Notes under the pieces: generated by a model
Database searches by the model: none
The model's input: only the letters and a program-made list of their open reading frames with translations
What the model was told of the DNA's origin: nothing
From: Candidatus Moraniibacteriota bacterium
GTDB taxonomy: Bacteria > Patescibacteriota > Minisyncoccia > Moranbacterales > UBA2206
Reading direction: 5' to 3'
Length of the DNA stretch: 64,000 bases
Assembly (NCBI GenBank): GCA_030645735.1
Contig: JAUSNP010000004.1
Location: 10,739-74,738, forward strand
Shown here: positions 3,600 to 48,604 of the stretch, piece by piece
Position numbering within the stretch: the stretch's first letter is position 1
Layout of the letters: each line of letters begins with the position of its first letter
Position numbers and translations under genes: made by a program

Positions 3600-3728
3600 A
3601 ATAAAGTTTTTATAATCCTATTAGTACCCCCATAATAGCATTTTTTTGTCTATCCTACAACCAAAAACACCCTGCCCAAAAAGGCAAAGTGTTTTTTATT
3701 GCAAAGACAGCTTTCACTGAAATAATGT

Positions 3729-13839: not shown

Positions 13840-13957
13840 GTTTTGGCGGCGTCCTACTTTTCCTAGACTGATGCCTAGATATCATCGGGGCTGAAATGCT
13901 TAACTGCCGAGTTCGGAATGGGATCGGGTGTTGCCATTTCGCTAGAACCACCAAAAC
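13840..13957 (-). rRNA. rrf: 5S rRNA
   Basis: The reverse complement reads GTTTTGGTGGTTCTAGCG...CCGAACTCGGCAGTTAAGC...GGACGCCGCCAAAAC. It has terminal helix I pairing and conserved 5S loop motifs. Confidence 0.85.
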
Positions 13958-14394
13958 AATGCTCTTTTTTCGCAGTCCGTAAAGTCCCAAGTCCGTAAAG
14001 TTTTTAAAGTCACATACTTTATGGACTTTTGACTTTATAGCCTTTCGACTCTAGAACGCGTTTATAACTGGTGCAAAAAACAAAAATGAAAAGATCGCAA
14101 TCGCAATTACAGAGAAGATGATGAAGATAAACTTCAAGCTTTCTCCGTATTTTTTAGAATACGATTTCATATTATTATTGTCCATTGTAAATATACTAAT
14201 ACAACTATTTATTCAGTAGATCTTGTGCACTCAGTTGAATTTCGCCATAAGCAAACTTCAACCGAGATAGTTTAGAAACTATTAACCACTAACCCACGCA
14301 TAACGCGTAACGCATATCGTGAAACATATATGAAATACGTTCTACGATTTGCGCTCTACGATCTGCGATTTATTTAAATTTAAGAGTGTAATTT

Positions 14395-17570
<3,176 letters not shown>

Positions 17571-27800: not shown

Positions 27801-30800
27801 GAACCTGTGGTATTGACATAGAGAGCATTCATACCATTGGCGGTGTTTTGAAGCCCCGTAGTGTTAGTATAGAGTGCTTGTCCACCATTGGCAGTATTTT
27901 CTTGGCCCGTAGTATTGAATCGGAGAGCTCTATATCCATTAGCTGTATTTACGCCACCCGTAGTATTAGAGTTTCCAGCCTGATAACCCGTGAAAGTATT
28001 CCAATTTCCCGTATTAACATTCCCTGCTTGATAGCCAAGAAAGGTTGAAAATCTTGCATCATCAAAATTAATCAGTCCACTAACTTGCAAGCTATTATTT
28101 GGCGTTGTAGTTCCAATGCCGATGTTGCCTGTTGCATTTACTACCGTTAATAAAGCTGTGCCGCTTGAATTACTAACAATTATATTTCCACCTAACTCTG
28201 GTGCAAATAAAAAATTATTGCTGTTGTCGATTCCAAAATACCCCTGACGAGCCGTATTATTATAAAATTCGATATAATTCCAACCGCCCGTGGTCTTACG
28301 CAATCTAATAGGATTATCAGTTGTGCTCGAAATTTCTAATTTTGCCCCTGGCGTCGTTGTCCCGATGCCAACATTTCCACTGCTTGCTTGAATATACATA
28401 CGATCAGTGGCACCGGCGTTGAATCGCATATTTATTGAATTAGCCGAGCCCATACTTAGTGTGCCGCTAGTGCTATTTCCATCATGCGTAAAAAGCGCAG
28501 CCCCGCCAAGACGGACATATTGATTCTGAGCTAGATTTAAATCGCCACCGCCAATGTCCAACTTGTATGCTGGATTCGTCGTTCCAATTCCAACATTGCC
28601 TCGCAAAATTGTTTCCACGACAGAGGCGTTGCCCAGCACTACTTGATTGCTAGCGGTGGTATAGGCGCCATTGCCCAGTGCCATGGAATTTGTAGCATCA
28701 ACTTTTTGCGAAGCATTGTTGCCAGCACTATTTCCCAAAAATGTATTGTATGTCCCAGTTGTAATTGAAAATCCAGATTGATAGCCCATAGCCGAATTGT
28801 TATCAGCAATAGTATTGCGCAAAGAATATGGACCAATTGCTACATTTGAAGAACCCAAGACATTCATTCTAAGCGCTTCTGAACCAACTGCTACATTATA
28901 TGCTCCAGAAGTATTGGCATACAGAGTATATGAACCAATTGCTGTATTCATCATCCCCGTGTTATTTGGCCCAAGAACATAAACTCCCAAAGCAGTATTA
29001 TAATTGCCAGTATTATTGACACTCGCTCCAGCGCCTATCAATGTTGAGTTCTTCGCACTATCAAAATTAATCAATCCTGCCACCTGCAAAAGATTATTTG
29101 GCGTAGTCGTGCCAATACCCAAGCTTCCATTGACGGCCAAAATATTGGTTGAAAAATCTCCATAAATCAAAGGCGTGGCCGTGTTGGAATTGTCGATATA
29201 CAATTTGTCTGATCCAGTTTCGCTGTAACCAGCTTGGTAACCAAGAAAGATGTTGCCAGAGCCAAGCGCTGAATATCCAGCTTGATAACCAAAGCCAATA
29301 TTATTGCTGTTGGTACTAATGTTCCTAAGAGTTTCCTGGCCTATGGCATAATTATTAGAACCAGTCGTGTTTGAAATAAGCGCATACAAGCCAATAGCGA
29401 TATTACTGTTTCCAGAAGTATTTGAATAAAGAGCCATATTGCCCATGGCGGAATTATATGATCCAGTAGTGTTAGAATACAATGCCAGTGGCCCAAAGGC
29501 AGAATTATATGAGCCAGTAGTATTAGAAAAAAGGGCGCTATTTCCCAAAGCTGAATTATAAAATCCAGCAATGTTTGCACGAAGCGCTTGGTTTCCTAGA
29601 GCTGAATTATAACCACCTGTAGTGTTTGAAAAGAGAGCTAGATAGCCAATTCCCGTGTTATCATTATTCGTCAAATCATCCACTTTTCCAGCATCTTCAC
29701 CGAAATAGGTTGACCGTCCTAGCCCAGTTTGTGAAACCCGTCCGTTAATGGTTAGTTTTGCTCCAGCAGTTGAAGCGCCGCTAATTCCTACTGTGCCATT
29801 TATGGTCAGTGCATCGGTTGAAAAATCTCCATAAATCAAAGGCAACGCTGTATTGGAATTGTCGATATACAATTTGTTTGAACCAAGTTCATTATAGCCA
29901 GCGTTATAGCCAACAAAAATATTGCCCGAACCAACAGAATTTTGAAATCCTGCCCCATTGCCAACACCAACGTTGCTATTTCCAGTAGTATTGCCCCGCA
30001 AAGCATCTACGCCGACAGCCGAGTTATAGCTACCCGTCGTATTGGAATAAATAGCATACACTCCGAAAGCAGAGTTGTATCCACCAGCAGTATTATATCT
30101 GAGAGCTCTCATCCCAAACGCAGAATTACTCCAGCCATCAATGTTATACATCATGGACTGATAACCTACAGCTACATTATTTTGACCAGCAGTATTGCGA
30201 TTAAGAGTTTGATATCCGACTGCAATATTATTTGAAGCTGTATTACTATAAAGAGTACCTGTTCCAATGGCAATGTTATAACCACCTGTGTTAGAATATA
30301 GCGCCTGATATCCCACAGCTATATTGTCTTGACCCGTGGTATTTAACGCCCCAGCCTGATAGCCCACAAAGGAGTTATGAATTCCAGCATTCGCATTCCC
30401 CGCTTGATAACCAAGGCTTGTGGAATATAGGGAGTTATTAAAATTTATAAGTCCCGCTACTTGAAGAAAATTATTTGGCGATGAAGTTCCAATGCCAAGA
30501 TTACCAGCAAAATATCCATTACCGCTAGCATCGAGCTTGAATTTATTGACGCTATTAACATTGAAATCCAAGAAGTCGCCACTGAATGAGCCAGAGCCGT
30601 TGGCGAAATTCATATTGATACCATCTCCAGAAAAAGCGGAGGTTGTCTGAGATAAACTCAAAGCATTTCCGGTTGTTACTCCACTCTGATATAAATATAT
30701 CCCGCTTGAACCTGATGCAACAGTCGATAACTCAAGCGCGGTATTGCTTATATTTTGATTTATTGTAAGGGCTGCGCCTTGTGCATTGTTTGTAAAAACT

Positions 30801-32218
30801 GCCCTGCCTCTTGGCGCAATAGTGAAAACATCCCCACCACCGAGAGTTGCAGGTTGTGATATTTTAAAGACACTCTGGCTAACTCCTTCCTTCCCTTGAA
30901 TATGCAGATTGGCGGATGGCGTACTCGTCCCAATCCCCACATTCCCCTCAGCATAAATATTTTTCACATTCAAATCCCCCAACTCCTCCGTATTCTCTCT
31001 TTGAAATAAGTTAAATTGTGACAGAGTGGCGTCCCAGACCAAGGCTGCATAGCCGTTTAGGCTCGAGCGATAGAAACGCAAGCCCATAGTTTCATCAACT
31101 GTTGAATCAGTGTTGATGGCAAAGTATTCACTGGTAGTTCCGTTTAGGTCTGTTCCACCTACACTCATGTTGTCTACATACAAGCTAGACCAGTGATTGG
31201 TAGCTGAGCCCAAATTAAGTCCCGTGGTTGATGGAATCAAATTGGAATTGATGGTCACATTCTCACCCGAGGTTCCCAGTGTGGCCTCACCATTGATGAT
31301 GAGTGATCTAGCATTGATAGTTCCAGCAACATCCAGCGCATAGGCAGGATTGTCTACGCCGATGCCGACATTGCCGTTGTTTAAAATCACCATCCGTTTA
31401 ACATCGGCGATTTTGATGAAAACATCACCTATGCCATCGGCGTTGGAGTCAGCGATGACCAATGCGTCGTCCGTATTGGAAATGTTTTGAGAAGAGATCA
31501 AATCTCCCCAAGCCGGCAAGCCGTTGATGACGCTTAGGACTTGTCCATTAGTACCAATTTTTAAATTAGACAGTGTGTTAGCAGCTGAAGCAAAAAGGGT
31601 GTCGCCGACGGTGTAGGTGGTGAGACCAGTGCCACCAAAGTTTGTGGTGACAGCATCGCCTTCCCAGGTTCCCGTGGCAATCACGCCGAGCGTTGTGATG
31701 CTGGGTAGAATTTTAGCATCGATCTTTCCACCTTTAGCTAGTTGCACAATGTTGCCTTCGGCTGTGCCAAGAGTGGCGCCACCGACTGAGTAGGAATCTG
31801 AAGCCAATGGCACAGCACCAATCTTTTTTCTGGGCACCATTTCACTGTCTGTGTTGATGCGGATACCGATGTAGTAATCATTTTCAGAAAAGTTCAAATC
31901 GGCCGGCAAAGGAGTTTCTTCCCCGAGGAAAGCGCCGATAGAACCGTTTTCAATTTTCACCTTTTGGGTTTCCTCCCAAACTCTGGCTCCAGCATCAGCA
32001 TTAGATGGATAACCATCTGTCTTTGTGCGGTCAGTGGTGTAAATGGCAAAACGGATGTCATATTCCCCATTGGGAATTTCTTTGTTTTTGTTGTTGAGGA
32101 TGTAGGCGGAGACATCGAGTTTTTTGATGGCTTGCGCGTGATTGGAAAAAAACAAAAGACTGCCTACTGTTGTTAGTAGAGCGACAGTTGCAATTAGTTT
32201 TGTTTTTGTTCTAAACAT
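24875..32218 (-). CDS. Giant secreted surface protein 3 (2447 aa). It has a signal peptide, tail-fibre-like NTxG/AxG beta-helical repeats, and ends in the conserved C-terminal module.
   Basis: The N-terminal signal peptide is MFRTKTKLIATVALLTTVGSLLFFSNHAQA. There are long runs of the YxSxxGxxAL..NTTGxxN(T/S)A.G repeat type seen in phage tail-fibre/beta-helix proteins. The SGDFLDF module and the C-terminal roughly 330 aa are shared with giants 1 and 2. Confidence 0.8.
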   Translation of the reverse strand: MFRTKTKLIATVALLTTVGSLLFFSNHAQAIKKLDVSAYILNNKNKEIPNGEYDIRFAIYTTDRTKTDGYPSNADAGARVWEETQKVKIENGSIGAFLGEETPLPADLNFSENDYYIGIRINTDSEMVPRKKIGAVPLASDSYSVGGATLGTAEGNIVQLAKGGKIDAKILPSITTLGVIATGTWEGDAVTTNFGGTGLTTYTVGDTLFASAANTLSNLKIGTNGQVLSVINGLPAWGDLISSQNISNTDDALVIADSNADGIGDVFIKIADVKRMVILNNGNVGIGVDNPAYALDVAGTINARSLIINGEATLGTSGENVTINSNLIPSTTGLNLGSATNHWSSLYVDNMSVGGTDLNGTTSEYFAINTDSTVDETMGLRFYRSSLNGYAALVWDATLSQFNLFQRENTEELGDLNVKNIYAEGNVGIGTSTPSANLHIQGKEGVSQSVFKISQPATLGGGDVFTIAPRGRAVFTNNAQGAALTINQNISNTALELSTVASGSSGIYLYQSGVTTGNALSLSQTTSAFSGDGINMNFANGSGSFSGDFLDFNVNSVNKFKLDASGNGYFAGNLGIGTSSPNNFLQVAGLINFNNSLYSTSLGYQAGNANAGIHNSFVGYQAGALNTTGQDNIAVGYQALYSNTGGYNIAIGTGTLYSNTASNNIAVGYQTLNRNTAGQNNVAVGYQSMMYNIDGWSNSAFGMRALRYNTAGGYNSAFGVYAIYSNTTGSYNSAVGVDALRGNTTGNSNVGVGNGAGFQNSVGSGNIFVGYNAGYNELGSNKLYIDNSNTALPLIYGDFSTDALTINGTVGISGASTAGAKLTINGRVSQTGLGRSTYFGEDAGKVDDLTNNDNTGIGYLALFSNTTGGYNSALGNQALRANIAGFYNSALGNSALFSNTTGSYNSAFGPLALYSNTTGSYNSAMGNMALYSNTSGNSNIAIGLYALISNTTGSNNYAIGQETLRNISTNSNNIGFGYQAGYSALGSGNIFLGYQAGYSETGSDKLYIDNSNTATPLIYGDFSTNILAVNGSLGIGTTTPNNLLQVAGLINFDSAKNSTLIGAGASVNNTGNYNTALGVYVLGPNNTGMMNTAIGSYTLYANTSGAYNVAVGSEALRMNVLGSSNVAIGPYSLRNTIADNNSAMGYQSGFSITTGTYNTFLGNSAGNNASQKVDATNSMALGNGAYTTASNQVVLGNASVVETILRGNVGIGTTNPAYKLDIGGGDLNLAQNQYVRLGGAALFTHDGNSTSGTLSMGSANSINMRFNAGATDRMYIQASSGNVGIGTTTPGAKLEISSTTDNPIRLRKTTGGWNYIEFYNNTARQGYFGIDNSNNFLFAPELGGNIIVSNSSGTALLTVVNATGNIGIGTTTPNNSLQVSGLINFDDARFSTFLGYQAGNVNTGNWNTFTGYQAGNSNTTGGVNTANGYRALRFNTTGQENTANGGQALYTNTTGLQNTANGMNALYVNTTGSYNTANGRHTLFSNTTGSFNTANGVDTLYSNIIGNYNTGVGYQAGYSVLGSGNIFIGYKSGYSETGSNKLYIDNSNTASPLIYGDFSTDIVAFNGSVGIGTATPTSLLQVDGNGGYVSAMINSAAGQSRDLMFSSGGLSRWIIRANSVAESGSDVGTNLEFVSRTDAGALKSTVMTLLRTNGYVGIGTTAPAYKLEVAGSGLGDQFQITKFGNDGNASYGSWLKTRGTTAGSMVTTQDGDYLGIFQFGGVTSVNTFGQAARIIVQQDGTAGSTFYNPANMQFRVSSNTAEITAMTIKPTGNVGIGTTAPESKLHVISGASEIITLERATAITNSVASALFVRHTTSGDMVDGFGSSLTFQIKDSAGVANAVGSIQALRVGADNTSSLLLNSYSAGTPVEGMRITSNGRIGMGVTVPAEKLDILGNIKLSSTYPALRFKPTAWTENADFQVGINDSFTLEGAYAGFYIPANKGFLVSRGTNSHNFIVNSTTGYVGIGTNSPVGELHVTSSDTVSADRGITSSQHASSVHSALLNLRKSRGTILSPSTLANGDYIGSVGFFGYGTAYTQRATIFAIVNGTVVADSVPTDLVFRTGSTVVAEQMRITSAGNIGIGTSNPTAKLDVVGQTTSSDGFIQKTNAGACTDLTFTTATDGLTCLDTTLGTERLYFRTGGTWSYIAKTGGFQIPNYEVAPLNQLSKNTLKGVTPNELTHFQNYLTQQITPGELLIPYADSTLQDGAIHGLYARFADVKDQMFQEQISQIENLNLQVTGNITTVAELKNSVNTQFGSIEKSLSEITNNQDTSTKQISNINDQINAQTQNIASLQTITETLQQQITTLQSQIATPVNIAQIDANTQSIDYLNQLLGITDTSKAGDITIVGKLTSQITETGSIIITVDPKNKDKATIGEATIKAGDTSVTVNTKAVSGDSKVFVTSMIVTDQPLAVTKINAGEGFIVKIKIPSVEDLKFNWWLVDSK

Positions 32219-38108: not shown

Positions 38109-40784
38109 TTATTTTTTAAATGCACCTACTAACTGCATAAAGCTTGTCGGCTTATATTTATCCCATTCCTCCTGCTTAACATAAAGCATTTTATATTCAA
38201 TTTTCTTTTGTCTTTCACTGGCATCCTCGCACCATTGTGCCAATCTTTTTATTTTTTCAATATCATCCAAATCTTCCCGTCCTTTTGTTTCGATAATATA
38301 GATTGTTTTGTTATCTGTCTTCACAAAAAAGTCTGGGTAATAACTGGAAATTGCACCGCTCGCATTTTTGTAATCAATCTTGAAATGAATTTCAAAGTAA
38401 TTTTTTGCGAAAGAAAGCACATCTTCAGCACCTTCCAAGAAGTCCGCAAATTCAAGCTCGAAATCACTGTCGCCGACAATTTTATTAAATACGCTCTTTT
38501 TGGGCAATAAATATTTTTTATCAGTTACCACAAATGGTCGCGCGCTACTAATTTTGAGATAATTTTTTATTTCCGTATCACCAACATCCTGCACAGTCAA
38601 ATTGTTTATCTCTTTTTTAAAGGTTTCGACAATAGTTTTTACCGCCTCTAATTCGGATAAGTTTCGCAAAATATTTGCGTCATTAAGATTCACTTCTTCA
38701 TTAAATAGATGCGCGTTGATAAATTCTTTCACTTTGCCAAAAAGAATGTCATAGCAACCAAAGAGACGGAGTTCTTTCATTATTCTTTGCACAAAAAATC
38801 CAATCACACTTTGGTAATTTGGCTCAATGGAGCTATTCAAAATTGTTGTGTGATGTTCTTTGTCATCAATAACTTCCTTAAAAACAATCTCTTTCTTTTC
38901 TTCCTCGGAAAACTGCTTAACTGAAATTTTTTCATGTTTGAAAGTAGCAATATTCAATAGATTGAGATTTTTGTATTCCCTCTGGATTCTCGGTGTCAGA
39001 ACCGGCAGTTCAATGTCCAAATTTTCAATATCTTTTTTTACATTTTCATGATCGACTTCAATGACTGTGGGAGTGATTGGAGAACCGCTTCGATCCATTC
39101 TTCTTTTTTCCAATTCAACACCTTCTGCCTTGATTGATTCAACAAACTCCATAAAAGCAGGTGTTCCAATGATACTCACATACTCTTCCACATCTTGTCC
39201 AAAAAACATTCGGCGAAGACCACGACCGAGTGTCTGCTCTGGCAAAATTTTTGAATCAGAACCATAAGGACGGAGTCCAACGATTGTTGTCACATTTTTT
39301 ACATCCCAACCCTCTTTGAGCATCAAGACAGAAACAATGACTTTATATGGGCTTTCCATGCTATCAATATCATTGGCCTTTTTCCTGAGTTCTTGCAATT
39401 CTTTTTCTTTTTTGCCAGTTGTCGTTTCAGATATCTCACCACTTCTATTTGTGTGAATTGTCAGAACCGCACCTTTCAATTGTGGATAGCTATTTTCCAA
39501 AAATTCCGCCACATCATCACAATTCGTTGTATCATCAGTCATTATAAAAAGAATCGATTTTTTTCCTGTTGGCAATAATTCTGTATATATCTTTTCCCAT
39601 TCTTCCACGCCCAGTCGAATAAAGTCTTCGTATTTTTCAGAAAATATTGAACTTTGTTTTTCTTGCAGTTTTGCCCGACTGGCAGAATCCGGCAAGACCG
39701 GATTTTTCACTACGCCTTGATGGATAGCTTCAACCAGCGGATAGTCAGAAACAGTCTGCACAAAAATCTCGCCACGATTATTTTTTGGTGTCGCAGTCAC
39801 ATCGATTTGCAAAGCTAGTTTTTTACCCTTTTGTAATAATCGATTATGAATATCTTCGATTGATTTAAACCATGCCATTTTTGGATCATGAATGTGATGA
39901 GCTTCGTCATTAATAACCATCAACTCATCAACGTCGCGCACGATTTCTCCTAAATCAATTTTTGAATCATTAGTCTTTCCAGTAACCTTACTGCCCATAA
40001 AATAATCTGACGTGTCCTCATCTTCAAAACTAGCTTCAGATATATCGCCTTCATAAACTCTATGTATATTAGTCAGAAAAATATTTCCCGATTTTGAAAT
40101 TGTGCCAACCTCATCTTGCAAATGCAGTTTTATTTGAAAATCATCTTGCCAATTTTGTCCGGCAAATCCATTATCAGGCAAAATCGGATCATCATGAAAT
40201 ATTTTCAATCCTTCAAAATCAGCCTTGATTCGATCCAAAACGATGATATTTGGCGTGATGAGTAAGAAATTTTTAGATAGTTCAGAATCTTCTTCATAAA
40301 GCTTGTGAAAATATGACCAAGCTAATAGCAAACTCATAACTTTTGTTTTTCCACTTCCAGTCGCCATCTTTATCACAAAACGAAGCCAATCCTCATTGAA
40401 CATATTCGGACTAACACGACCCAATTTATCAAACTTTATCAAATCATATTTGTTGGAAACTTTTTCAACATCATAGAGCCAGATAATTGTTTCCACTGCC
40501 TCTCTTTGAGCATAATAATATTGAAAGGAAACGCTTGTTCCGTCTTTGGCAAAAATGGTGTGTGGCTCAAGAAACCACCAATTCAAAAGAGCCTTGGAAG
40601 TTTCGCTTGCTCCGTCATAATTATTCTTTCGCCACTCCGCAACTTGCTCACGCAATTCTGGAACAAAAGGAGGCAAAAGCTTTTCAAAACCCTCTCTTCG
40701 CAAATCTTCTTCGGCCGGAAACCACCTGATTGCCGGATCAAGGATTTGAAATTTATCTTTTGGAAAATCTTTGTGTAATGCCAT
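38109..40784 (-). CDS. res: Type III restriction enzyme Res subunit (SF2 helicase plus a C-terminal PD-(D/E)xK-like nuclease)
   Basis: Walker A is ..MATGSGKTKVM... DEAH box is ..VINDEAHHI... A helicase C-terminal region follows. The C-terminal ..YYPDFFV...YIIETKGRE.. motif is nuclease-like. Confidence 0.85.
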   Translation of the reverse strand: MALHKDFPKDKFQILDPAIRWFPAEEDLRREGFEKLLPPFVPELREQVAEWRKNNYDGASETSKALLNWWFLEPHTIFAKDGTSVSFQYYYAQREAVETIIWLYDVEKVSNKYDLIKFDKLGRVSPNMFNEDWLRFVIKMATGSGKTKVMSLLLAWSYFHKLYEEDSELSKNFLLITPNIIVLDRIKADFEGLKIFHDDPILPDNGFAGQNWQDDFQIKLHLQDEVGTISKSGNIFLTNIHRVYEGDISEASFEDEDTSDYFMGSKVTGKTNDSKIDLGEIVRDVDELMVINDEAHHIHDPKMAWFKSIEDIHNRLLQKGKKLALQIDVTATPKNNRGEIFVQTVSDYPLVEAIHQGVVKNPVLPDSASRAKLQEKQSSIFSEKYEDFIRLGVEEWEKIYTELLPTGKKSILFIMTDDTTNCDDVAEFLENSYPQLKGAVLTIHTNRSGEISETTTGKKEKELQELRKKANDIDSMESPYKVIVSVLMLKEGWDVKNVTTIVGLRPYGSDSKILPEQTLGRGLRRMFFGQDVEEYVSIIGTPAFMEFVESIKAEGVELEKRRMDRSGSPITPTVIEVDHENVKKDIENLDIELPVLTPRIQREYKNLNLLNIATFKHEKISVKQFSEEEKKEIVFKEVIDDKEHHTTILNSSIEPNYQSVIGFFVQRIMKELRLFGCYDILFGKVKEFINAHLFNEEVNLNDANILRNLSELEAVKTIVETFKKEINNLTVQDVGDTEIKNYLKISSARPFVVTDKKYLLPKKSVFNKIVGDSDFELEFADFLEGAEDVLSFAKNYFEIHFKIDYKNASGAISSYYPDFFVKTDNKTIYIIETKGREDLDDIEKIKRLAQWCEDASERQKKIEYKMLYVKQEEWDKYKPTSFMQLVGAFKK

Positions 40785-40788
40785 ATAA

Positions 40789-41145
40789 CTATTTCTTTTT
40801 TATTAGCTCCTGAATTTGTTTTTGCTGTTCCAATATTAACTGTTGATTTTTTTGATTTTGATCAAGAAGTTCCTGGTTAATCTTCTGTGATTGTTCAACA
40901 GATCCGGTTTTTTCTGAATATTCCTTATAGATGGCTGAATTTATATGAAAAGAATCAATAATCAATGTTGACACCATCACTAATAAAATTATAACAACAC
41001 TAAGTAAGATATAGTTTATATCTTTAAATTTAGAATCGGCTTCTTTTTTAACATCTTCCACCGTAACAGAGCCACCAGTTTCTGGTATTTTAATTTGGAT
41101 TTCACCAAGTTCAGATTTTTCAAATTGCACTTGTTCCTTTTCCAT
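40789..41145 (-). CDS. Small single-pass membrane protein with a Q-rich coiled-coil C-terminus, inserted between mod and res
   Basis: A 118-aa ORF with a central TM helix (ILLSVVIILLVMVSTLII) and ...QELLDQNQKNQQLILEQQKQIQELIKKK. Confidence 0.4.
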   Translation of the reverse strand: MEKEQVQFEKSELGEIQIKIPETGGSVTVEDVKKEADSKFKDINYILLSVVIILLVMVSTLIIDSFHINSAIYKEYSEKTGSVEQSQKINQELLDQNQKNQQLILEQQKQIQELIKKK

Positions 41146-41148
41146 AAA

Positions 41149-41367
41149 TTAAAAAATACCCTTAATTACAAGAACGCCAGACTCCTCCTCAACAGCAAAA
41201 TCTCTTCCAACAAATTGAGCAAGATCTATCCCACTAAAAGACACTCCTCTACCAAATCTAACACCTGGGCCCATTTGCACGCCACCAATTCTAACCAAGC
41301 GAAGAGGCTCAATGCTTCCATCTGTATCTACTTTAAATATTTGATAAAAATTAATTCTTTGAATCAT
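41149..41367 (-). CDS. Small Gly-rich hypothetical protein between mod and res
   Basis: A 72-aa ORF with a 4-nt overlap or spacing to its neighbours. No motif was recognised. Confidence 0.3.
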   Translation of the reverse strand: MIQRINFYQIFKVDTDGSIEPLRLVRIGGVQMGPGVRFGRGVSFSGIDLAQFVGRDFAVEEESGVLVIKGIF

Positions 41368-41371
41368 TAAT

Positions 41372-43534
41372 TTATATATTTATCTCAATTACTTTGGTCG
41401 TATCGTTTCCAAAAATATCAATCACCTTGATTGCGATTTTCATTTTGCCTTTGGACACTTCCTTGAAAACTGAAATCAATTCAAGAGATCTGTCTTTTTT
41501 GGTTCTGAATGATTGCCACTCATTTTCAAAAATATAATTTCCAGTCCATTTTTCTTCAAAGTCGCCTATCTCCATTTGTACAGCATCAGACGATCCATCA
41601 AGTTTTTGCTGAACAGTTTTTTCTTTCGGCACTCTGATAATTTCTTTTTTGCTTTCAAAATCAAAATCCACCGACCAATAATCAATCCAGTCAGTCCATT
41701 TTTTTGTCAAAGTTTCACGCTCAATAATATCCGTATTTTTATCCTTGGAAATCTTTATGACTTGACCGTTTTCAATGACAATCTTGTTTCCACCGGATTT
41801 CAATTTTTCCTCCACTTCTCCAGTATTGTCTTGATTATAGAAAACGGAGAAATCAGTTATCTCAATAGCAACTTCTTTGGCGTTGCCTCGTCCGCGGATA
41901 ATTGGTTTAACTTCAATATAGGCAATGTCATAAAATTTCACCTGTCCTTTTTCAACCGCTTTTTTATCAAACACTTCACGCGGAATAACCTTAAATTGCA
42001 CATCAATACCCAGTTTTTTTGCTTGCTCAAAGTCCAGTCCCATTTCATAGTCAAATCCCAAAACATCAGCTTTAGTTATTTTATTCTCCCGACATTCAGT
42101 GATTATTTTTTCCAGAAAATCATTTGTAATTGGCGTATCAATTGATCCGACTGCAATCAGCCTATCTCTTTTCTTACCGACAAATGAATTGAATGAATCA
42201 ATTGGCTCAGCCTTGTAGGCAGAAAGAATGAGTTTGATAAATTCTTTTTCTTTATTCACCCTTTGAATTCTTTTTTCTTCGTCACGCAAATTTTCATTCA
42301 CAGTCAAAAACTTCTCTCTTTCATATTTTCCAATATTTAAAATTTCAAATGCTCGAAAATTTTTACCAACTTTCTTCAATTCTCTTTGCACCCCAATCAT
42401 TCTCTTGCGAGTGGTATGGACAGAAAAACGACCTAAATCAGAACCAATCCATTTTCGATTTAGCTTTTCTGCAACCGCCAAAGTTGTGCCTGAGCCACAG
42501 AAAAAATCAGCAACAAGATCACCTTCATTGGAAGAGGCGCTTATTATTCTTCTGAGCAGTGACTCTGGTTTCTGGGTTGGATAAGCAATGTGTTCAGGAA
42601 GTGCATTAAAAACCTGTCCGATATTATTTTCTTTTCTATCTAGCCAAGTCCAAACATCATCCGCTTTTCTCCCTTCATCTGCATAATATCTTGTAGCATT
42701 ATTATTTCCAGACATTCTATACTTTCTACCATCCTCATCAACAAGAGGATAAATACTTTCATTCTTTACAAGCAAACGCACTTGATTAAATTTTACTGAT
42801 TTTTTATTTTTAGCAAAAGAAATTATATAATCATGCTTTTTAGCAAAGCCTTTTATTGGCGCTGTACCAGCCTGATAATGCCAAATTATTTGATTCAAAA
42901 AATTTTCCTTTCCAAAAATTTCATCTAGAATTAAGCGCATATAACTATTCAATCTCCAATCACAATGCACATAAACACTACCATCATCCGCCAAAAGACC
43001 GTGCATCAACTTTAGCCTTTCATAAATCATCGCTATAAAACTATCGGCGCCTTTGCCCCAGGTGTCGCGGTAGGCAATTTCTTCAATCACCGACGGTTTT
43101 TTGGTGAAAGTATCTTCGCCAATTTCAATATTCATCGAAAAATCCGCGCCCACATCAAATGGAGGATCGATATAAATCAATTTCAATCCACCCTCAGCTT
43201 CAATTTGTTTTCGAAGTGGTCCATTCTTGAGCGATGACAAAATCAATTTATTGTCACCCCAAATTAGCTTGTTTGACCAGCCTTTCATTTGCCGGCCAGA
43301 AGTGTCAAAAAGAGAAGTTTGCGCGGTTATTTTTTCCTCACTCCGTGGTTCATCAATATGCTCAATCGTCTGAAATGGCAAAACTATATTTTCCGTTTCA
43401 TCAGTTTTTCCATTCCATAAAAGCTCAACCTCCCGATCGGTGTCAAAAAGCAAAAAGCGGTATTTCTCCGGCAATGACTTGCCAGATTCCAAATACTTTA
43501 TTACATCTCGTTTTTCATTCTCAGTTAGCTTCAT
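41372..43534 (-). CDS. mod: Type III R-M Mod subunit (N6-adenine/N4-cytosine beta-class DNA methyltransferase)
   Basis: Motif IV (..LIYIDPPFDVGADF..) precedes motif I (..DFFCGSGTTLAVA..). The protein is 720 aa and lies upstream of res in the same orientation. Confidence 0.85.
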   Translation of the reverse strand: MKLTENEKRDVIKYLESGKSLPEKYRFLLFDTDREVELLWNGKTDETENIVLPFQTIEHIDEPRSEEKITAQTSLFDTSGRQMKGWSNKLIWGDNKLILSSLKNGPLRKQIEAEGGLKLIYIDPPFDVGADFSMNIEIGEDTFTKKPSVIEEIAYRDTWGKGADSFIAMIYERLKLMHGLLADDGSVYVHCDWRLNSYMRLILDEIFGKENFLNQIIWHYQAGTAPIKGFAKKHDYIISFAKNKKSVKFNQVRLLVKNESIYPLVDEDGRKYRMSGNNNATRYYADEGRKADDVWTWLDRKENNIGQVFNALPEHIAYPTQKPESLLRRIISASSNEGDLVADFFCGSGTTLAVAEKLNRKWIGSDLGRFSVHTTRKRMIGVQRELKKVGKNFRAFEILNIGKYEREKFLTVNENLRDEEKRIQRVNKEKEFIKLILSAYKAEPIDSFNSFVGKKRDRLIAVGSIDTPITNDFLEKIITECRENKITKADVLGFDYEMGLDFEQAKKLGIDVQFKVIPREVFDKKAVEKGQVKFYDIAYIEVKPIIRGRGNAKEVAIEITDFSVFYNQDNTGEVEEKLKSGGNKIVIENGQVIKISKDKNTDIIERETLTKKWTDWIDYWSVDFDFESKKEIIRVPKEKTVQQKLDGSSDAVQMEIGDFEEKWTGNYIFENEWQSFRTKKDRSLELISVFKEVSKGKMKIAIKVIDIFGNDTTKVIEINI

Positions 43535-43571: not shown

Positions 43572-44561
43572 ATGGTATCATTAAGTAAGGGTTTATTCAA
43601 GACAGATGAAATGAGCAGGATTTCAAATACAAATAGCACAGGAGGATTGGAAATAGATCGCCTAATGGGCGACGATTTTCTTTTTCTCCTCCTTATTCTG
43701 ATTGACTACCCAGAAAAAAATCCCGGCATCCTTGATCCAGCTCCGTTTGGAAAATTTAGATTCAAAAATTTGCAGTGGAAGTATTGTATTGAATTTATAC
43801 TGTTTCTCAAAAATTGTGCTGGCATAAAAGTCACACGAACAAACCAAGACCTTCCCGAAGTTGAAGTTTTTGAGGAATCGATTGAAATTATTCAAAATGG
43901 CATAAATAATTATTTGGAAAAATTCATCTCTGGCGAACTTATCCCCATTGATAAAAATTATTTAAATTTTGAAAAACAGAAAAAATATTTTCTAGAGAAA
44001 ATAAAAACTAAGCTTGAAAATGAAACATCTAAAACGCTTTTTCTTTCTGACAATGAAATTGAAAATGAATATGATTTTTTTGAAAGCATGTTGGCTTTGG
44101 AAAGGCAAAAATATTTAAAAATAAAAAGTGTCACCAATTCCCAAAAGCCAGAAAGCTCTGATTTTTATAAAATAGTTTTTACAATACGATCAAAATTTCA
44201 CAAAAAAGTTAGCGTGCAAAACAAAAAAGTTAGAAGGCTTTCCGTTAAATGCTTTTCAAAAGGAAACTTGGGCTATTTTCGCGTGAAAAAAGAATCCAAA
44301 GAAAAAATCATCGGAAAGGCTAATTCCAGGCCGTTTTTATTATTACAATTTTTAGTCAATCAAGGCATTGGCGAAATAGTATCGTTCCAAAAAGCTTTCA
44401 AGGCCATCAAAGACGGCAAACATTATAAAACAACCTCCCACCTTGTGGATGAAGAATTGGCCGCTCTTATAAATGCTAGGAAAGTTCTGCAGAAAGAGAG
44501 AAAAATACACCCCTTCAAACTAATTATCGGCAAAAAAGACCGCACAATCCGAATGCAATAA
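43572..44561 (+). CDS. Hypothetical protein, about 300 aa, lysine-rich, in the mobile-element-like module. The start is uncertain.
   Basis: A long plus-strand ORF. No catalytic motif was recognised. The C-terminal region is helix-rich. Confidence 0.45.
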   Translation: MVSLSKGLFKTDEMSRISNTNSTGGLEIDRLMGDDFLFLLLILIDYPEKNPGILDPAPFGKFRFKNLQWKYCIEFILFLKNCAGIKVTRTNQDLPEVEVFEESIEIIQNGINNYLEKFISGELIPIDKNYLNFEKQKKYFLEKIKTKLENETSKTLFLSDNEIENEYDFFESMLALERQKYLKIKSVTNSQKPESSDFYKIVFTIRSKFHKKVSVQNKKVRRLSVKCFSKGNLGYFRVKKESKEKIIGKANSRPFLLLQFLVNQGIGEIVSFQKAFKAIKDGKHYKTTSHLVDEELAALINARKVLQKERKIHPFKLIIGKKDRTIRMQ

Positions 44562-44698
44562 ATTAAAATCATTTTATTGATTTTGGAAAAAACAGAGAAT
44601 TCACTCTGTTTTTTCGTTTGAATAAACGAAAAAGTTCAACAGCCAATTCTCTCGTGGCTTGTTTTCTTGACGGCGTGGGGAGCGTTTTATGTAATGCA

Positions 44699-44896
44699 GT
44701 CATGCAAGAACAATTTTCACCACACCTCATAGAAAAATGCCAAAAGCTCGTTTTCAAGCGAGCTGGGGTTCACATCACCGAAGATCAAGCAGGGAGGTGC
44801 TTGGAAAAATTGGCGCGTTTGGCTAAACTGGCTTTCGAGACTCTTGTGGAAAATAAACATAATGCAAAACCCGATGGAAAGAATAATCACAATTGA
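44699..44896 (+). CDS. Small protein of the ELIKKCQ family, copy 3 (..PHLIEKCQKLVFKRAGVHITEDQAGRCLEKLARL..)
   Basis: The start is placed at the internal Met by alignment with copies 1 and 2. Confidence 0.5.
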   Translation, partial: VMQEQFSPHLIEKCQKLVFKRAGVHITEDQAGRCLEKLARLAKLAFETLVENKHNAKPDGKNNHN

Positions 44897-45173
44897 TAAA
44901 AATGCCCGCTTAAAAATCATTTGCGGAAGCATAATGTTGCAATATAGGAAAAAATCCAAAACAAAGCAAATAGCGTGGCACACAGACGGCCATTTCTCAG
45001 ATTATGCATCAATGGCAGAACATTACATTTCCAACGCGCCATACCGCGCTATTGAAGGCACAGCGTCAATAGAAAAGCTGATTGAAGTCGTCCAGCAGTC
45101 GAGCGACCAAATCAGCCGAGTTTTGAAAAATAATCAATTAAATGGAAAATCACATGGAAAATCAAACCGATGA
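44862..45173 (+). CDS. Hypothetical small protein
   Basis: An ORF of about 100 aa that overlaps the end of the preceding gene, with a start at an internal Met. Confidence 0.35.
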   Translation: MQNPMERIITIDKNARLKIICGSIMLQYRKKSKTKQIAWHTDGHFSDYASMAEHYISNAPYRAIEGTASIEKLIEVVQQSSDQISRVLKNNQLNGKSHGKSNR

Positions 45174-45375
45174 GACTACGAATGAAGAATTCAATCAAAT
45201 ACCAGCTGGTGAGAAACTCTGCCCGCTCATGAATGGATTCTACAAGGGCATTCCTTGCACTTCAGATTGTGCCCTGTATCGTGAGGGTAAGAATGAAAAT
45301 GCATGTGCTTTGCATGAACTGAGATCGATCAGTTGGTTCATGAAGCAGAGCCAGGACAAAAAGCCCATTGATTAA
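45142..45375 (+). CDS. Small Cys-motif protein (LCPL...C..DC family), copy a
   Basis: A 77-aa ORF containing ...EKLCPLMNGFYKGIPCTSDCALY...C.... Confidence 0.45.
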   Translation: MENHMENQTDETTNEEFNQIPAGEKLCPLMNGFYKGIPCTSDCALYREGKNENACALHELRSISWFMKQSQDKKPID

Positions 45376-45416
45376 ATCAATGGGCTTAAAAAAATAATTA
45401 TTAACTACACAATCAA

Positions 45417-45662
45417 ATGGCTATGGTCAAGATTGAGGGCTTCCTCAAAAAGCTGGAAAAATTGCCGTTGAGCGAGCTATGCCCGCTCATCGACAATGTG
45501 AAGTGGAACTGCGGAAAATTAGACAAAGGCAATGAGCCATGCTGTCATAATACCTATAAATATATGAACTGTCCGCATTTCAAAAAATGGTTCTATTGGA
45601 ATGTGACCCGGATGGTTGCCAAAGAAATCGCCAAACTGGAAATTAGTCAAAAGAAAAAGTAA
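45417..45662 (+). CDS. Small Cys-motif protein (LCPL...C..CC..C family), copy b, a paralog of 45142-45375
   Basis: An 81-aa ORF containing ...SELCPLIDNVKWNCGKLDKGNEPCCHNTYKYMNCPHF.... Confidence 0.45.
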   Translation: MAMVKIEGFLKKLEKLPLSELCPLIDNVKWNCGKLDKGNEPCCHNTYKYMNCPHFKKWFYWNVTRMVAKEIAKLEISQKKK

Positions 45663-45702
45663 CCAAAAAGAAATGTAAATAATACTTACTTACTAAAGGT
45701 AC

Positions 45703-45744
45703 AGTAACTAGTAAGTAAGTATGGTTTTAAAAACTTTTTCTTTG
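45703..45744. promoter_or_regulatory. 14-bp perfect inverted repeat hairpin (atacttacttacta / tagtaagtaagtat) directly after the Cys-protein gene. It may be a terminator or a recombination/operator site.
   Basis: Read from the sequence. It is followed by GGTTTT. Confidence 0.5.
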
Positions 45745-46856
45745 AGAAATCTCTCTAACTGAAAAACTGAAACGACCTAAAAATCCCTCTGTCGCGCGAA
45801 AAATGCTACGCTATGCACATTTAAAAGGCTCGGATAAGCCAAAGTTATGGGAATTAAAAATGACGGTGATCCGCCGCGCGCTGGCAACGAACCACTGACT
45901 TGAAAAAATGCACAAATCTTGGCAGAGGCGCAGCGGAAAGGGCGCCAGAGGACAAAAAAATTGGAGCAATCTTTGAGAAGACGCATTTTTGCCGGAACAA
46001 TGACGGCCATCCGGAATTGGACGGAAAAATGCAAGCGACGAGAAGTTGAAACGATTTTGTTTGGCCTCGGGTTCGCACTCCCCTCGCCTTGGGGCGAGGG
46101 GTTGGGGGTGTGGGGAAATCCAAAGTGCGGAAAAGGATTGATGTCCTACAACGGGCATTCTTGCGACACCCCTTTTTTCTCAAAAATCGGGGAAAGCTTG
46201 GACACGATTTTTGCAAGAAAAAAGAGCGTGTTCGCAAAATGCCTCGTTGTGGGAGGGTGAGAAAAAGACAGTCCTTTAGTTTTCAAAGTGAAGTTTTTTT
46301 CGAATCCCCTTGCGTCAATCCTTTTCCTTCCTTGCGGGGAAAGAGATTGAGAAGACCGCCAAGGTTTTCTCACTACTAAAGCAGTTTGACCGCAACCTTT
46401 ATAAATTGTGCAGGATGAAACAGTGGCATTGGAAAAGTCTGATTAGATATTTGGCAGTCTGGAATTTTCGCCGCGAAAAGTTCCAGTCTGCCAAATTCCT
46501 TGAATGAAAACATTTTCCAAGGACACTGTTTCTTTCTGCTTTCCTTTTTGATTGGTTGCGGGAAAACTACCCTTATTTTAGGGGGTTATCCATAGAATAA
46601 AAATATGTTATTATACATATGGACACAAATTAATATTCATCAGAACACAATCGGTGCGATTTTTTTTCGTATCGAGAAAAGGGCGACTTTCGCTTCAAGT
46701 TCTGATGAAGAATTTGTGTCCAGCGAGGTCGTCCTTTTGTTTGGGCGAAAAACAAAAAAATTATGGACACAAACTTATTACTCAGCGATTCACCGGCAGA
46801 CTTGCCAACCATATTGATGTTTTTTGGAACATTTATTTTTATAATTTTTATGGAAT

Positions 46857-48443
46857 ATGGAAACGATAAAAACAAAAACAAATAAACCAAAATTTGTCAT
46901 CTATGCCCGTAAGTCATCAGAAGACAATAGCAAACAAGTGCATTCGATTGATGCGCAGATTTTTGTCATGAAAGACATTGCCAAACATGAAGGCATTCAG
47001 ATTGTGGAAATCTTTCAAGAATCAAAATCCGCCAAAGAACCTGGGCGGCCGGTTTTCAACAAGATGATCGAGCAATTCAAGAAAAACAAATATGATGGCA
47101 TTCTCTGCTGGAAAATTGACCGCTTGGCGAGAAATCCGGTGGACGCCGGAATTGTGCAATGGCTTTTGCAGAAAAATTCCATCCAGCAGATTATCACCAG
47201 CGACCGAAAATATAATCCGGAAGATAATGTCATTATTGCCAGCGTAGAATTCGGAATGTCGAATCAGTATATTTTGGATTTGTCTAAAAATGTGAAACGC
47301 GGTTTGGCGGAGAAAGTTCGGCGCGGAGAATATCCCGGGCCGGTGCCACTCGGATATTTGCGAGATTTCAAAACTAAAAAGATTATCCTAGATCCTGACA
47401 AAGCGCACTATATCAAACGAGCCTACCAACTTTATTCAACTGGCCTTTATTCTATCGACCAGCTCACGGAAAAACTGAACAATGAAGGCTTGCGCTCTTT
47501 GCACAGCCAAAGAGTCCAGCCATCAATTATTGGGCGCATGCTGAATAATCCAATTTATTATGGCTGGTTTGAATGGAAGGGCCAACTTTGCCCGGGCAAG
47601 CACGCGCCAATCATCTCCAAGGACATTTTTGACAAGGTGGACGAGATAATGTTTCCGCAGAGGGTTATGAAACGGAAAGATAAGCGAAAGTTCACTTTTC
47701 GCGGCCTTTTGCGTTGCGGTGAGTGTGGGTTGAAGATAACCGCGGAGGTGCGGAAAGGCCACACCTATTATCGTTGCACGAAATCCAGAGGCACCAACAA
47801 ATGCTCCCAAAGATATGTGCGTGAAGAGGCTCTGGACGAAGAAATCAACCGCAAGCTATCTGAGCTCAACTTTGATCCGGAAGTGACTGAGCTGGCCATT
47901 TTGGCGCTCAAAGACCAAAACAGAAACCAACTGCAACAGCAAATTGAAATCCAAAGAAAGAACGAGGAACTGCTCCGCAAGAACCGAGAATCGCAAGACA
48001 TCCTCGTCAATCGCTTTTTGGACAATCTCGTGCCAGAGGATATTTATAATCGCCGGCTGACAGGCTTGCGCAACGATGAAGCACGGTTGGATGAAATAAT
48101 CCAAAACACCAAAGACAACACACGCAACGCTTTTGATAAGATTGAAACGATTGTGCGCTTTTCCCAATTAGCCAATGAAATATTTACAAATGGAACTCCG
48201 GTAGCGAAGAAAGAAGTGGCTGGCATAATATCTTCGGACATCACTTTGAAAGATAGAAAAATCCTTGATTTTAGCCTTGATGTTGAATTTCAATGGATGA
48301 TAGATGATATGAATGACTCGTTTGCCCTAAACCACAAAATTGCAATCTTGGAACCAGTCACTTTAGCTTTAGAAAAAGCAAAAGCAGGCATTGAGTTGCC
48401 TGCTAAAAGCGTTGTGCGGGGCTGGCCGGACTCGAACCGGTGA
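46857..48443 (+). CDS. Large serine recombinase (phage-integrase type). It has a resolvase catalytic domain, a recombinase domain and a zinc-ribbon domain.
   Basis: The N-terminus is ..FVIYARKSSEDNSKQVHSIDAQ.. with the catalytic Ser motif, followed by ..ILCWKIDRLARN... The zinc ribbon is ..CGECGLKIT...YYRCTK..C.. and a long coiled coil follows. The last roughly 25 nt of the ORF overlap the 3' end of tRNA-Asp. Confidence 0.9.
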   Translation: METIKTKTNKPKFVIYARKSSEDNSKQVHSIDAQIFVMKDIAKHEGIQIVEIFQESKSAKEPGRPVFNKMIEQFKKNKYDGILCWKIDRLARNPVDAGIVQWLLQKNSIQQIITSDRKYNPEDNVIIASVEFGMSNQYILDLSKNVKRGLAEKVRRGEYPGPVPLGYLRDFKTKKIILDPDKAHYIKRAYQLYSTGLYSIDQLTEKLNNEGLRSLHSQRVQPSIIGRMLNNPIYYGWFEWKGQLCPGKHAPIISKDIFDKVDEIMFPQRVMKRKDKRKFTFRGLLRCGECGLKITAEVRKGHTYYRCTKSRGTNKCSQRYVREEALDEEINRKLSELNFDPEVTELAILALKDQNRNQLQQQIEIQRKNEELLRKNRESQDILVNRFLDNLVPEDIYNRRLTGLRNDEARLDEIIQNTKDNTRNAFDKIETIVRFSQLANEIFTNGTPVAKKEVAGIISSDITLKDRKILDFSLDVEFQWMIDDMNDSFALNHKIAILEPVTLALEKAKAGIELPAKSVVRGWPDSNR

Positions 48444-48490
48444 CCTACTGCGTGACAGGCAGTCGCTCTAACCAACTGAGCTACAGCCCC
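48417..48490 (-). tRNA. tRNA-Asp (anticodon GTC)
   Basis: The reverse complement is GGGGCTGTAGCTCAGTTGGTTAGAGCGACTGCCTGTCACGCAGTAGGTCACCGGTTCGAGTCCGGCCAGCCCC plus a discriminator. The cloverleaf and the anticodon loop CTGTCAC were checked by eye. Confidence 0.8.
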
Positions 48491-48513
48491 ATTTGTCTAT
48501 TCTATTTTTAACT

Positions 48514-48576
48514 TTGCGTAACCTACTGCGTGGCAGTCCCGAGTACTCGGGATCTGACCAACTGAGCTACAGCCCC
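48514..48576 (-). pseudogene. Truncated pseudo-tRNA-Asp fragment. It comprises the 5' acceptor and D arm, an 18-nt palindrome, and an anticodon-stem remnant, and has no T arm.
   Basis: The reverse complement is GGGGCTGTAGCTCAGTTGGTCAGA-tcccgagtactcggga-CTGCCACGCAGTAGGTTACGCAA. It duplicates the 5' half of the adjacent tRNA-Asp. Confidence 0.5.
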
Positions 48577-48604
48577 ATAATTTGTCTATTTTATTTTCAA
48601 CCCG

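Follow-up and report, generated by a model that had tools for sequence, protein, structure and literature searches.

A probable large structured RNA, outside the families of Rfam, in recombinase islands of Moranbacteria and in small phages

Upstream of a large serine recombinase gene, a genome of the Moranbacteria (Patescibacteria, or Candidate Phyla Radiation, CPR) contains a stretch that is poor in open reading frames (ORFs) and relatively rich in GC, which raises the question of whether this DNA is the remnant of a gene, a collection of DNA sites or a functional RNA. We analysed the locus within a window of 64,000 nucleotides (nt) of contig JAUSNP010000004.1, the positions of which are used throughout (Table 1), and conclude with a probability of about 0.9 that the + strand at ~45754-46555 specifies a large structured RNA with several domains, for which Rfam has no family. 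Large bacterial RNAs that have a well-supported structure and lack a known function are rare, and several earlier RNAs of mobile elements (HEARO, IS110 leaders) proved to represent new mechanisms.

Evidence for a structured RNA

An earlier inspection of the letters alone (the sequence-only reading) had proposed a large structured RNA here, pointing to the lack of ORFs longer than about 120 codons, to mutually overlapping short ORFs and to a GC content above that of the surrounding coding DNA. The longest ORF between the flanking genes is indeed only 127 amino acids (aa; 45854-46237, - strand), and all ORFs in this interval are short and overlap on both strands. The GC content is 0.52 at 45850-46149 and 0.48 at 46000-46299, compared with 0.25-0.42 in the upstream genes (43750-45850), 0.32-0.35 at 46600-47049 and up to 0.43-0.49 in the recombinase gene, so that the enrichment is clear on the left side and less pronounced on the right. 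A perfect stem (cccctcgcc-ttgg-ggcgagggg) is also present, 1-2 nt away from the 46078-46100 at which it had been placed (hairpin Pa in Table 1). When minimum free energies were compared with those of shuffled sequences, 45760-46600 gave z-scores of -12.7 on the + strand and -10.5 on the - strand (0/20 shuffles as good), versus -1.7 for an equal length of the adjacent recombinase gene.

Support for a specific structure came from related loci. Ten loci were aligned with MAFFT over window positions 46066-46400, and the structure predicted by RNAalifold contained 50 base pairs, 30 of which had changes on both sides. In this structure 91.4% of cells were able to pair, versus 45-57% when the 3′ partners were slid by 1-3 columns; the slid controls had 5-14 covarying pairs, and 0/500 column shuffles reached any of these measures. 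The covariance model R1 (window 46127-46329, 206 positions, 57 pairs) yielded an alignment of 11 loci with compensatory changes in 43/57 pairs, 94.2% pairing cells (44-53% with slid partners) and a covariation score of 0.575 (0.09-0.135 in slid controls); this alignment is fitted to the model, and the independent MAFFT result agrees with it. For the 3′ domain, an alignment of seven sequences including phage (A17) had compensatory changes in 21 of 31 predicted pairs. The sequence-only reading would have failed if an Rfam match and covariation were both absent, or upon frame-shifted homology to a protein. Compensatory changes were well above the controls, unusually strong for so few sequences from an uncultured phylum with tiny genomes, and together with the lack of a coding signature this bears out the proposal of a large structured RNA.

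The helices contained 48 G-U cells against 10 A-C cells, and two U-G pairs were invariant in 11/11 sequences, which indicates selection on the + strand as a single strand. Selection of this kind rules out double-stranded, protein-binding palindromes and points to RNA, although functional single-stranded DNA may formally still be allowed.

Coding was assessed with the same loci. Mismatches between the window and its homologs were evenly distributed over the codon positions (for example 26/25/25, 28/35/27 and 44/42/42), and 532/562 pairwise indels (95%) were not multiples of 3, whereas the recombinase gene had 51/27/183 changes by codon position and no frameshifting indels. Because of these even changes and frame-breaking indels, we consider the region neither a gene nor a drifting pseudogene. 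A region without any RNA function, whether a decayed gene from a GC-richer donor or a set of DNA palindromes (attachment (att) sites, oriT or protein-binding sites), would account for the many short overlapping ORFs, some of which are called as genes in public annotations of homologs, and for the good folding of both strands. It is nevertheless very improbable, as 67-80% of the sequence is conserved across loci and phage despite the absence of periodicity and the frame-breaking indels, no ORF inside the region matches a Pfam or other protein family, compensatory changes maintain nested long-range helices, the 48:10 excess of G-U over A-C comes with invariant wobble pairs, and iteron-type direct repeats are lacking. 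The decayed higher-GC pseudogene, which had been held out as the alternative, is rejected on the grounds of the missing codon periodicity, the frame-breaking indels and the compensatory changes.

At the gathering thresholds of Rfam the whole window contained only ribosomal RNA (rRNA) and transfer RNA (tRNA) matches, and at E≤10 the interval 45300-47200 returned sub-threshold chance matches of the miRNA or sRNA type, the best with 25.8 bits against a gathering threshold of 79. No family was matched over the RNA of phage L229 (described below) either. The covariance models of GOLLD, ROOL, OLE, raiA and HEARO were not matched, neither ARAGORN nor Rfam found a tmRNA, and the phi29-type packaging RNA (pRNA) family gave no Rfam match in the window or in phage L229. 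Group I and group II introns were rejected as well, with no Rfam match, a location between genes and no reverse transcriptase or maturase ORF. The suggestion of a GOLLD- or ROOL-type RNA, made from the phage-like setting near tRNA genes, is therefore upheld for the setting, since a tRNA-Asp gene lies 1.9 kb downstream, followed by two tRNA-Met genes, and the same RNA is found in two contigs of genuine phages; membership of these families is not upheld, as no model of GOLLD, ROOL, HEARO, tmRNA or introns matched. Our literature searches did not find a description of this RNA. Motifs upstream of large-terminase and resolvase genes are noted in a catalogue from 2023 that lists 10,006 short candidate viral RNAs (PMC10690425), and fragments of the RNA or of the recombinase leader described below may be among them.

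The predicted RNA is built from a 5′ domain, hairpin Pa with its G tracts, a conserved core and a 3′ domain (Table 1). The 5′ domain was detected by nhmmer with E-values of 1e-29 to 1e-52 in five islands (L010, L011, L093, L098 and L101) and weakly in two more (L096 and L001); its sequence is conserved in six loci, and two of its motifs recur with matching spacing in L019. The consensus structure of this domain (MAFFT and RNAalifold) had just 10 pairs, all invariant, and no covarying fold was obtained. In hairpin Pa (helix 1), 87% of cells are paired and two pairs have changes on both sides. The motif consisting of the C-tract hairpin, UU and GGGGG is kept in all homologs, with two copies in phage L229, and a pseudoknot between the G tracts and CCCCUUGC may be conceivable. 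Invariant motifs around the junction of the core include GUC.CACAA, UUGUG.GAGGG, UCCUU and AAUCCCCUUGC. The small hairpin that follows the core is embedded in a recurring motif, GGGAAAG.G.UUGAGAA.ACC...GGUUUUC, of which L010, L011 and L093 have a second copy more 3′. In the 3′ domain a long hairpin (46410-46436/46513-46539) surrounds an inner one (46449-46468/46477-46496) that has conserved GUCUG/CAGUCUG sequences with a U-U mismatch, and the domain ends with a conserved GCUUUCC tail and a U-rich run near 46555, probably the 3′ end of the RNA. Ahead of the RNA, an AT-rich hairpin just 3′ of the stop codon of the 81-aa ORF, with a similar segment in L100 and L011, is a possible terminator or processing site.

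Table 1. Features of the RNA locus and of the island around it (window positions; helix arms separated by a slash)
Feature	Position	Strand	Details
ORF-poor, GC-richer stretch	45663-46856		between the 81-aa ORF and the serine recombinase gene
AT-rich near-perfect hairpin, then T-rich run	45679..45725	+	ATACTTACTTACTA...TAGTAAGTAAGTAT; inverted repeat I1
5′ domain of the RNA	45754..45948	+	islands only; nhmmer, alignment A8
5′ domain, conserved motif	45792-45799		UCGCGCGA
5′ domain, conserved hairpin	45827-45840		GGCUCGGAUAAGCC
5′ domain, conserved motif	45884-45895		GCAACGAACCAC
5′ domain, conserved motif	45921-45930		GGCAGAGGCG
Hairpin Pa with UU and G tracts	46080..46115	+	arms 46080-46088/46093-46101; then UU; G tracts 46104-46108 and 46112-46115
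Conserved core, three-way arrangement	46126..46329	+	covariance model R1, 195.7 bits here
P1, long-range helix	46131-46144/46312-46325		perfect repeat 46129-46141/46315-46327
P2, ~110-nt hairpin (46145-46253)	46145-46159/46238-46253, 46168-46169/46228-46229, 46173-46187/46207-46223		
P3 (46254-46310)	46254-46257/46307-46310, 46260-46266/46296-46302		
Small hairpin	46351..46369	+	GAAGACC-GCCAA-GGUUUUC; pairs 335-354 of alignment A5
3′ domain	46410..46555	+	inverted repeats I2 and I5; alignment A17
Extended -10 element	46606..46614	+	TGTTATTAT; nearly invariant in 15 loci
Recombinase leader	46620..46745	+	alignment A11 of 15 loci
Leader helix H1	46621-46631/46711-46721		
Leader helix H2	46636-46646/46699-46709		
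Leader inner hairpin	about 46652-46676		
Terminator-like helix T, 16-bp	46677-46693/46723-46738		followed by UUUUGUUU (U tract, to 46742)
40-aa hydrophobic small ORF	46763..46885	+	MDTNLLLSDSPADLPTILMFFGTFIFIIFMEYGNDKNKNK; 29-nt overlap with recombinase start
Large serine recombinase, 528 aa	46857..48443	+	Pfam Resolvase, Recombinase and Zn_ribbon_recom
tRNA-Asp	48416-48490	-	two tRNA-Met genes come after
Type III restriction-modification pair, island cargo	38109-43534	-	N6_N4 methylase (720 aa) and Res-type helicase-nuclease (891 aa)
329-aa protein, first gene of conserved + strand module	43572..44561	+	C-terminal OmpR/PhoB-type winged-helix DNA-binding domain, read from the predicted model
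77-aa Cys4 protein	45142..45375	+	CP.-x-C-x3-C-x-C...ISW; tblastn and alignment
81-aa Cys-rich ORF	45417..45662	+	immediately upstream of the RNA; conserved in 10/14 loci compared

Occurrence on islands and in phages

Related loci were fetched with the recombinase, which gave 14 distinct loci with recombinases 46-83% identical to that of the window. All of these share a module of - strand cargo, often restriction-modification genes, a 305-401 aa protein, two to four small ORFs, an ORF-poor and GC-richer gap of 1-1.7 kb and the recombinase, with a tRNA gene next in 12/14. On the islands the RNA lies after small Cys-rich ORFs and before the serine recombinase. Ten loci scored 138-196 bits with R1, L018 reached 81 bits and L001 36 bits, and the window has only one copy. 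At the DNA level, the gap of the window shares 73-78% identity with those of L010, L093 and L098 over stretches of 280-520 nt. More distant recombinase relatives (34-44% identity) are without the RNA, with no match of R1 in any of 18 such loci; in several of these (L002-L005) the recombinase is directly abutted by ORFs. On sister islands the cargo is a different type III system, a type I system or a protease, which makes the island module a carrier of variable defence cargo.

The RNA also occurs in phages. A pattern scan of IMG/VR followed by R1, in which a first, loose pattern gave at least 120 chance matches and 1 true match and a tighter pattern 2 true matches out of 26, identified two phage contigs with R1 scores of 148.9 and 176.8 bits. 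One of these, L229 (IMGVR_UViG_3300025018_000090), is 14,094 nt long with 127 identical bases at both ends, and is for this reason taken as a complete podophage-like genome of ~13.97 kb. Among its products are a large terminase (TerL), an SPP1-like portal, an SU10-type major capsid protein and adaptor, a tail fibre and an M23/LysM lysin, but neither an integrase nor a recognisable replication protein was found in it. In L229 the RNA fills most of a 1.05-kb ORF-free gap, about 7% of the genome, between a 187-aa helix-turn-helix (HTH)-like ORF and terL, on the same strand as both; the HTH-like ORF is TerS-like by position alone. The second contig (L108/L235) has the same arrangement, and its 474-aa ORF, considered as a recombinase, was rejected as such and is TerL. 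No match to the RNA was found among GenBank phages and PLSDB plasmids.

The islands and these small podophages of Patescibacteria have the 3′ ~470 nt in common (46098-46569), in segments that cover the hairpin with its G tract, a portion of the core and the hairpin of the 3′ domain, and blastn also matched positions 3580-3741 of phage L234 to window positions 46408-46569. The 5′ domain is not present in the phage loci, and the recombinase, its leader and the winged-helix protein are not shared either. The only protein family common to RNA-carrying islands and phages is that of the 77-aa Cys4 protein, the gene of which is located just upstream of the TerS-like ORF in several phages and directly upstream of the RNA on several islands. 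It has no Pfam or PHROG family. The 81-aa ORF has no PHROG family and a weak, sub-threshold match to Pfam Cys_rich_VLP (E 0.27), and searches of the internal and small neighbouring ORFs against Pfam, PHROGs and NCBIfam returned nothing useful.

Thirteen further phage contigs have a TerL 58-72% identical to that of L229, and a gap of 0.66-1.5 kb upstream of terL is kept in 10/12 measurable related phages. Four related phages gave weak partial R1 matches only, suggesting that this region evolves fast. At the start of the gap in L229 (12100-12151) there is a sub-threshold Rfam match to a type III hammerhead (21.7 bits, gathering threshold 48.5, E 0.11); by eye its core reads CUGAAAA and not CUGANGA, so it is probably not active, and no counterpart was reported in the window.

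The recombinase leader and the surrounding genes

A further conserved element lies between the RNA and the recombinase gene. The extended -10 element at 46606 is probably the promoter of a recombinase mRNA that would form a transcription unit separate from the large RNA, and the ~130-nt leader behind it, which occurs in each of the 15 loci compared, resembles an RNA switch or attenuator that has not been catalogued. Across these loci H1 is 98.8% paired with five covarying pairs and T is 83% paired with three; T encloses the 3′ arms of H1 and H2, and the two folds are therefore probably mutually exclusive. An alternative CC-GNAA-GG hairpin is also possible in the leader. Opposite-strand genes intervene between the RNA and the leader in two loci (- strand ORFs in L001 and a called - strand gene in L094), and the leader persists without the core in three others (L014, L019 and L100), from which we conclude that the leader is a unit separate from the RNA. 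No conserved pairing between the two was found, only matches of G tracts to pyrimidine tracts and a lineage-specific match of 16-19 nt (L096, L015) that is missing from the window. The apical GGACAC of P2 was considered as a mimic of a leader arm and rejected for lack of covariation.

The small hydrophobic ORF that overlaps the recombinase start is replaced in other loci by a homolog or by a different single-pass transmembrane peptide (e.g. MKYYQKKLKYKGAKSIWDWSLSEWIGYAIILIIFALIYYFSNP in L010), the stop codon of which can overlap the recombinase ATG, as in L010, and this overlap suggests translational coupling. At its other end, the recombinase gene overlaps or abuts a tRNA-Asp, -Pro, -Gln or -Trp gene, depending on the locus; in the window its final codons overlap the 3′ end of tRNA-Asp. 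The recombinase clade thus inserts at the 3′ ends of at least four tRNA genes, a natural series in which to study how specifically large serine recombinases choose their att sites. Between tRNA-Asp and tRNA-Met, a 22-nt stretch (48557-48578) is identical to the 5′ part of tRNA-Asp (48471-48492) and may have been left behind by a previous integration or excision event.

To the left of the RNA are four small + strand ORFs and the 329-aa protein, followed by the restriction-modification cargo, and the island extends over ~10-13 kb, from about 35.2-38 kb to 48.4 kb of the window. The 891-aa Res-type helicase-nuclease also has a TnsA-like endonuclease domain. Elsewhere in the window, the 23S rRNA match (14382-17563) measures 3182 nt against a model of 2925 positions, corresponding to ~250 nt of insertions in the gene, for which the whole-window scan gave no intron family at threshold; the 5S rRNA is located at 13841-13955, and a 2447-aa ORF on the - strand (24875-32218) has no Pfam family at E≤0.001.

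Possible roles and comparison with known RNAs

The size of the RNA, the unpaired invariant motifs of its junction, its modular build and the two unrelated gene contexts in which it occurs argue for a folded RNA or ribonucleoprotein. By analogy with GOLLD and ROOL, the most probable of the readings, though with the odds still against it, is that the RNA is phage-derived and has a role of that kind. It would then act through its fold rather than serve as an mRNA, a DNA site or a recombinase guide; it would be co-transcribed with the upstream operon of small ORFs, remain as a stable particle that probably includes the Cys4 protein encoded nearby, and serve the propagation of the phage, or of the island upon infection by such a phage. 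Taken as a whole, the statement of a structured RNA together with this mechanism is tentative, its chances being a little short of even. Several observations weigh against it. Three islands (L014, L019 and L100) keep the same protein module with the core missing or replaced, and L010 and L011 do not conserve the U tract that follows the 3′ hairpin. No conserved promoter and no canonical terminator were found for the RNA, and its ends, its processing and even its transcription are read from sequence. The Cys4 gene is far from the RNA in phage L229, so that the link to this protein is one of co-occurrence only. Finally, the RNA is operon-internal and co-oriented with the downstream gene in 13/13 loci, which suits a cis-acting leader equally well.

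Such a leader or intercistronic element on a polycistronic transcript would control terL and the head genes in phages and the recombinase on islands, by processive antitermination, attenuation or transcript processing, perhaps with the Cys4 protein as regulator. Besides the constant orientation, the lack of a visible promoter of its own, the retention of the gap between the TerS-like ORF and terL in related phages and the conserved terminator-like helix with its U tract in the recombinase leader, a possible target of antitermination, are all in keeping with this, and the adjoining upstream gene for a small Cys-rich protein is reminiscent, by analogy only, of late regulators of the Q or Ogr type. 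We nevertheless judge it unlikely, given the - strand genes that separate RNA and leader in L001 and L094, the putative conserved promoter of the recombinase itself, the absence of conserved RNA-leader pairing and the functionally unrelated downstream genes, and since an RNA of 470-800 nt that has a three-way junction and unpaired, invariant motifs far exceeds known antitermination RNAs. A guide or bridge RNA that programs the adjacent serine recombinase for its tRNA target, as the IS110 bridge RNAs do, would explain why every island has the RNA ahead of, and co-oriented with, the recombinase gene and why recombinase relatives target four different tRNA genes (Asp, Pro, Gln and Trp). Large serine recombinases recognise att sites via protein domains, however, and the longest identity or complementarity to the cognate tRNA averaged 9.08 nt versus 9.17 ± 1.0 nt for non-cognate tRNAs; the cores of L093 (Pro) and L098 (Trp) are 85% identical, the core is missing from three islands whose recombinases belong to this clade, and the phages have the RNA without any recombinase. 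A target-matching guide is largely refuted and can be given very little weight, with short bipartite guides still conceivable.

Two further proposals concern phage DNA itself. As an RNA-primed replication origin, the transcript would resemble the ColE1 RNA II pre-primer, with its fold and G tracts favouring a persistent RNA-DNA hybrid from which host RNase H and DNA polymerase I make a primer, for the phage and for excised islands. The RNA fills most of a ~1-kb gap in a 14-kb phage without a recognisable replication gene, the islands lack such a gene too, G tracts are conserved, the GC skew is about +0.2 over 45850-46300, related phages differ rapidly in this sequence, both settings have an adjoining HTH or winged-helix gene, and the size is near that of ColE1 RNA II (~550 nt). 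An antisense control RNA, iterons or an AT-rich unwinding element were not identified, though, the elaborate junction with invariant loops would be superfluous for priming, and expression would be expected late and not early from a place between terS and terL, should the upstream ORF be terS, which makes this origin rather improbable. A function in packaging, as a motor component comparable to the phi29 pRNA or as a pac recognition site, would fit the location directly upstream of terL in podophages and a phage contig that ends inside terL, consistent with a permuted, headful-packaged genome. In the pac variant the islands would carry the region to enter the heads of the 14-kb phage, as phage satellites; the island (~10-13 kb) and the phage genome (13.97 kb) are of similar length, and islands and phage share exactly the RNA region and one small protein. 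The pRNA family of Rfam is not matched, however, TerL has the full size of a terminase, in contrast to phi29 gp16, strand-specific G-U covariation would not result from a double-stranded pac site, the islands are without terS or capsid-remodelling genes and their satellite status is conjectural; packaging is thus the less probable of these two. Stated more broadly, the RNA could be part of the DNA-handling machinery (packaging-motor RNA or primer/origin) of minimal ~14 kb phages of Patescibacteria, with the islands as satellites that have their own copy, which we regard as doubtful. If true, a helper would replicate or package the islands and spread restriction-modification cargo among CPR bacteria, which would give CPR its first described satellite system and add a second case, unrelated to the earlier one, of a phage DNA machine that depends on RNA.

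The allocation of ~7% of a 14-kb genome to the RNA argues that the phage needs it. Its presence in phages and on restriction-modification islands with recombinases gives a concrete handle on the movement of mobile DNA in Patescibacteria, and the adjacent recombinase leader offers a separate, testable putative RNA switch.

Among known systems, the phi29 pRNA is likewise a structured RNA of a small podophage, here beside the terminase gene; the pRNA is ~174 nt and not adjacent to gp16, and the terminase differs as noted above. ColE1 RNA II is comparable as a structured, G-rich transcript of ~0.5 kb from a long non-coding stretch in a small replicon without a replicase, whereas the RNA described here has no sequence relation to it, lies upstream of terL in a phage or on an island instead of a plasmid, and has no identified counterpart of antisense RNA I; consensus scans of the - strand gave two terminator-like hairpins (45895-45866 and 45840-45827), which are short and partly conserved. 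The HK022 put RNA and the lambda late leader are also embedded in operons, co-oriented with long downstream late operons, with a small regulator gene upstream and, as on the islands, a terminator-like helix downstream, but these are 65-200 nt with two or three stems, compared with 470-800 nt, a junction and long-range helices here, where opposite-strand genes may intervene before the downstream gene (L001, L094). The HEARO/omega and IS110 bridge RNAs are large structured RNAs beside and co-oriented with the recombinase gene of a mobile element; the neighbour here is a large serine recombinase and not IscB, TnpB or an IS110 DEDD enzyme, the RNA has no target-matching segment and it occurs in phages without a recombinase.

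The closest resemblance in kind is to GOLLD and ROOL, which form RNA-only homo-oligomers according to cryo-EM (PMC12286853). Like these, the RNA described here is several hundred nt long and multi-domain, with many covarying helices and conserved junctions, occurs in phage genomes and in integrated elements beside tRNA genes, and has no adjacent protein that explains it. Unlike these, it belongs to a patescibacterial host, is unrelated in sequence and architecture with no Rfam match, and occupies a fixed place upstream of terL in mini-podophages or of the serine recombinase on islands. We class it as a new family of a known general kind, that of the ornate RNAs carried by phages.

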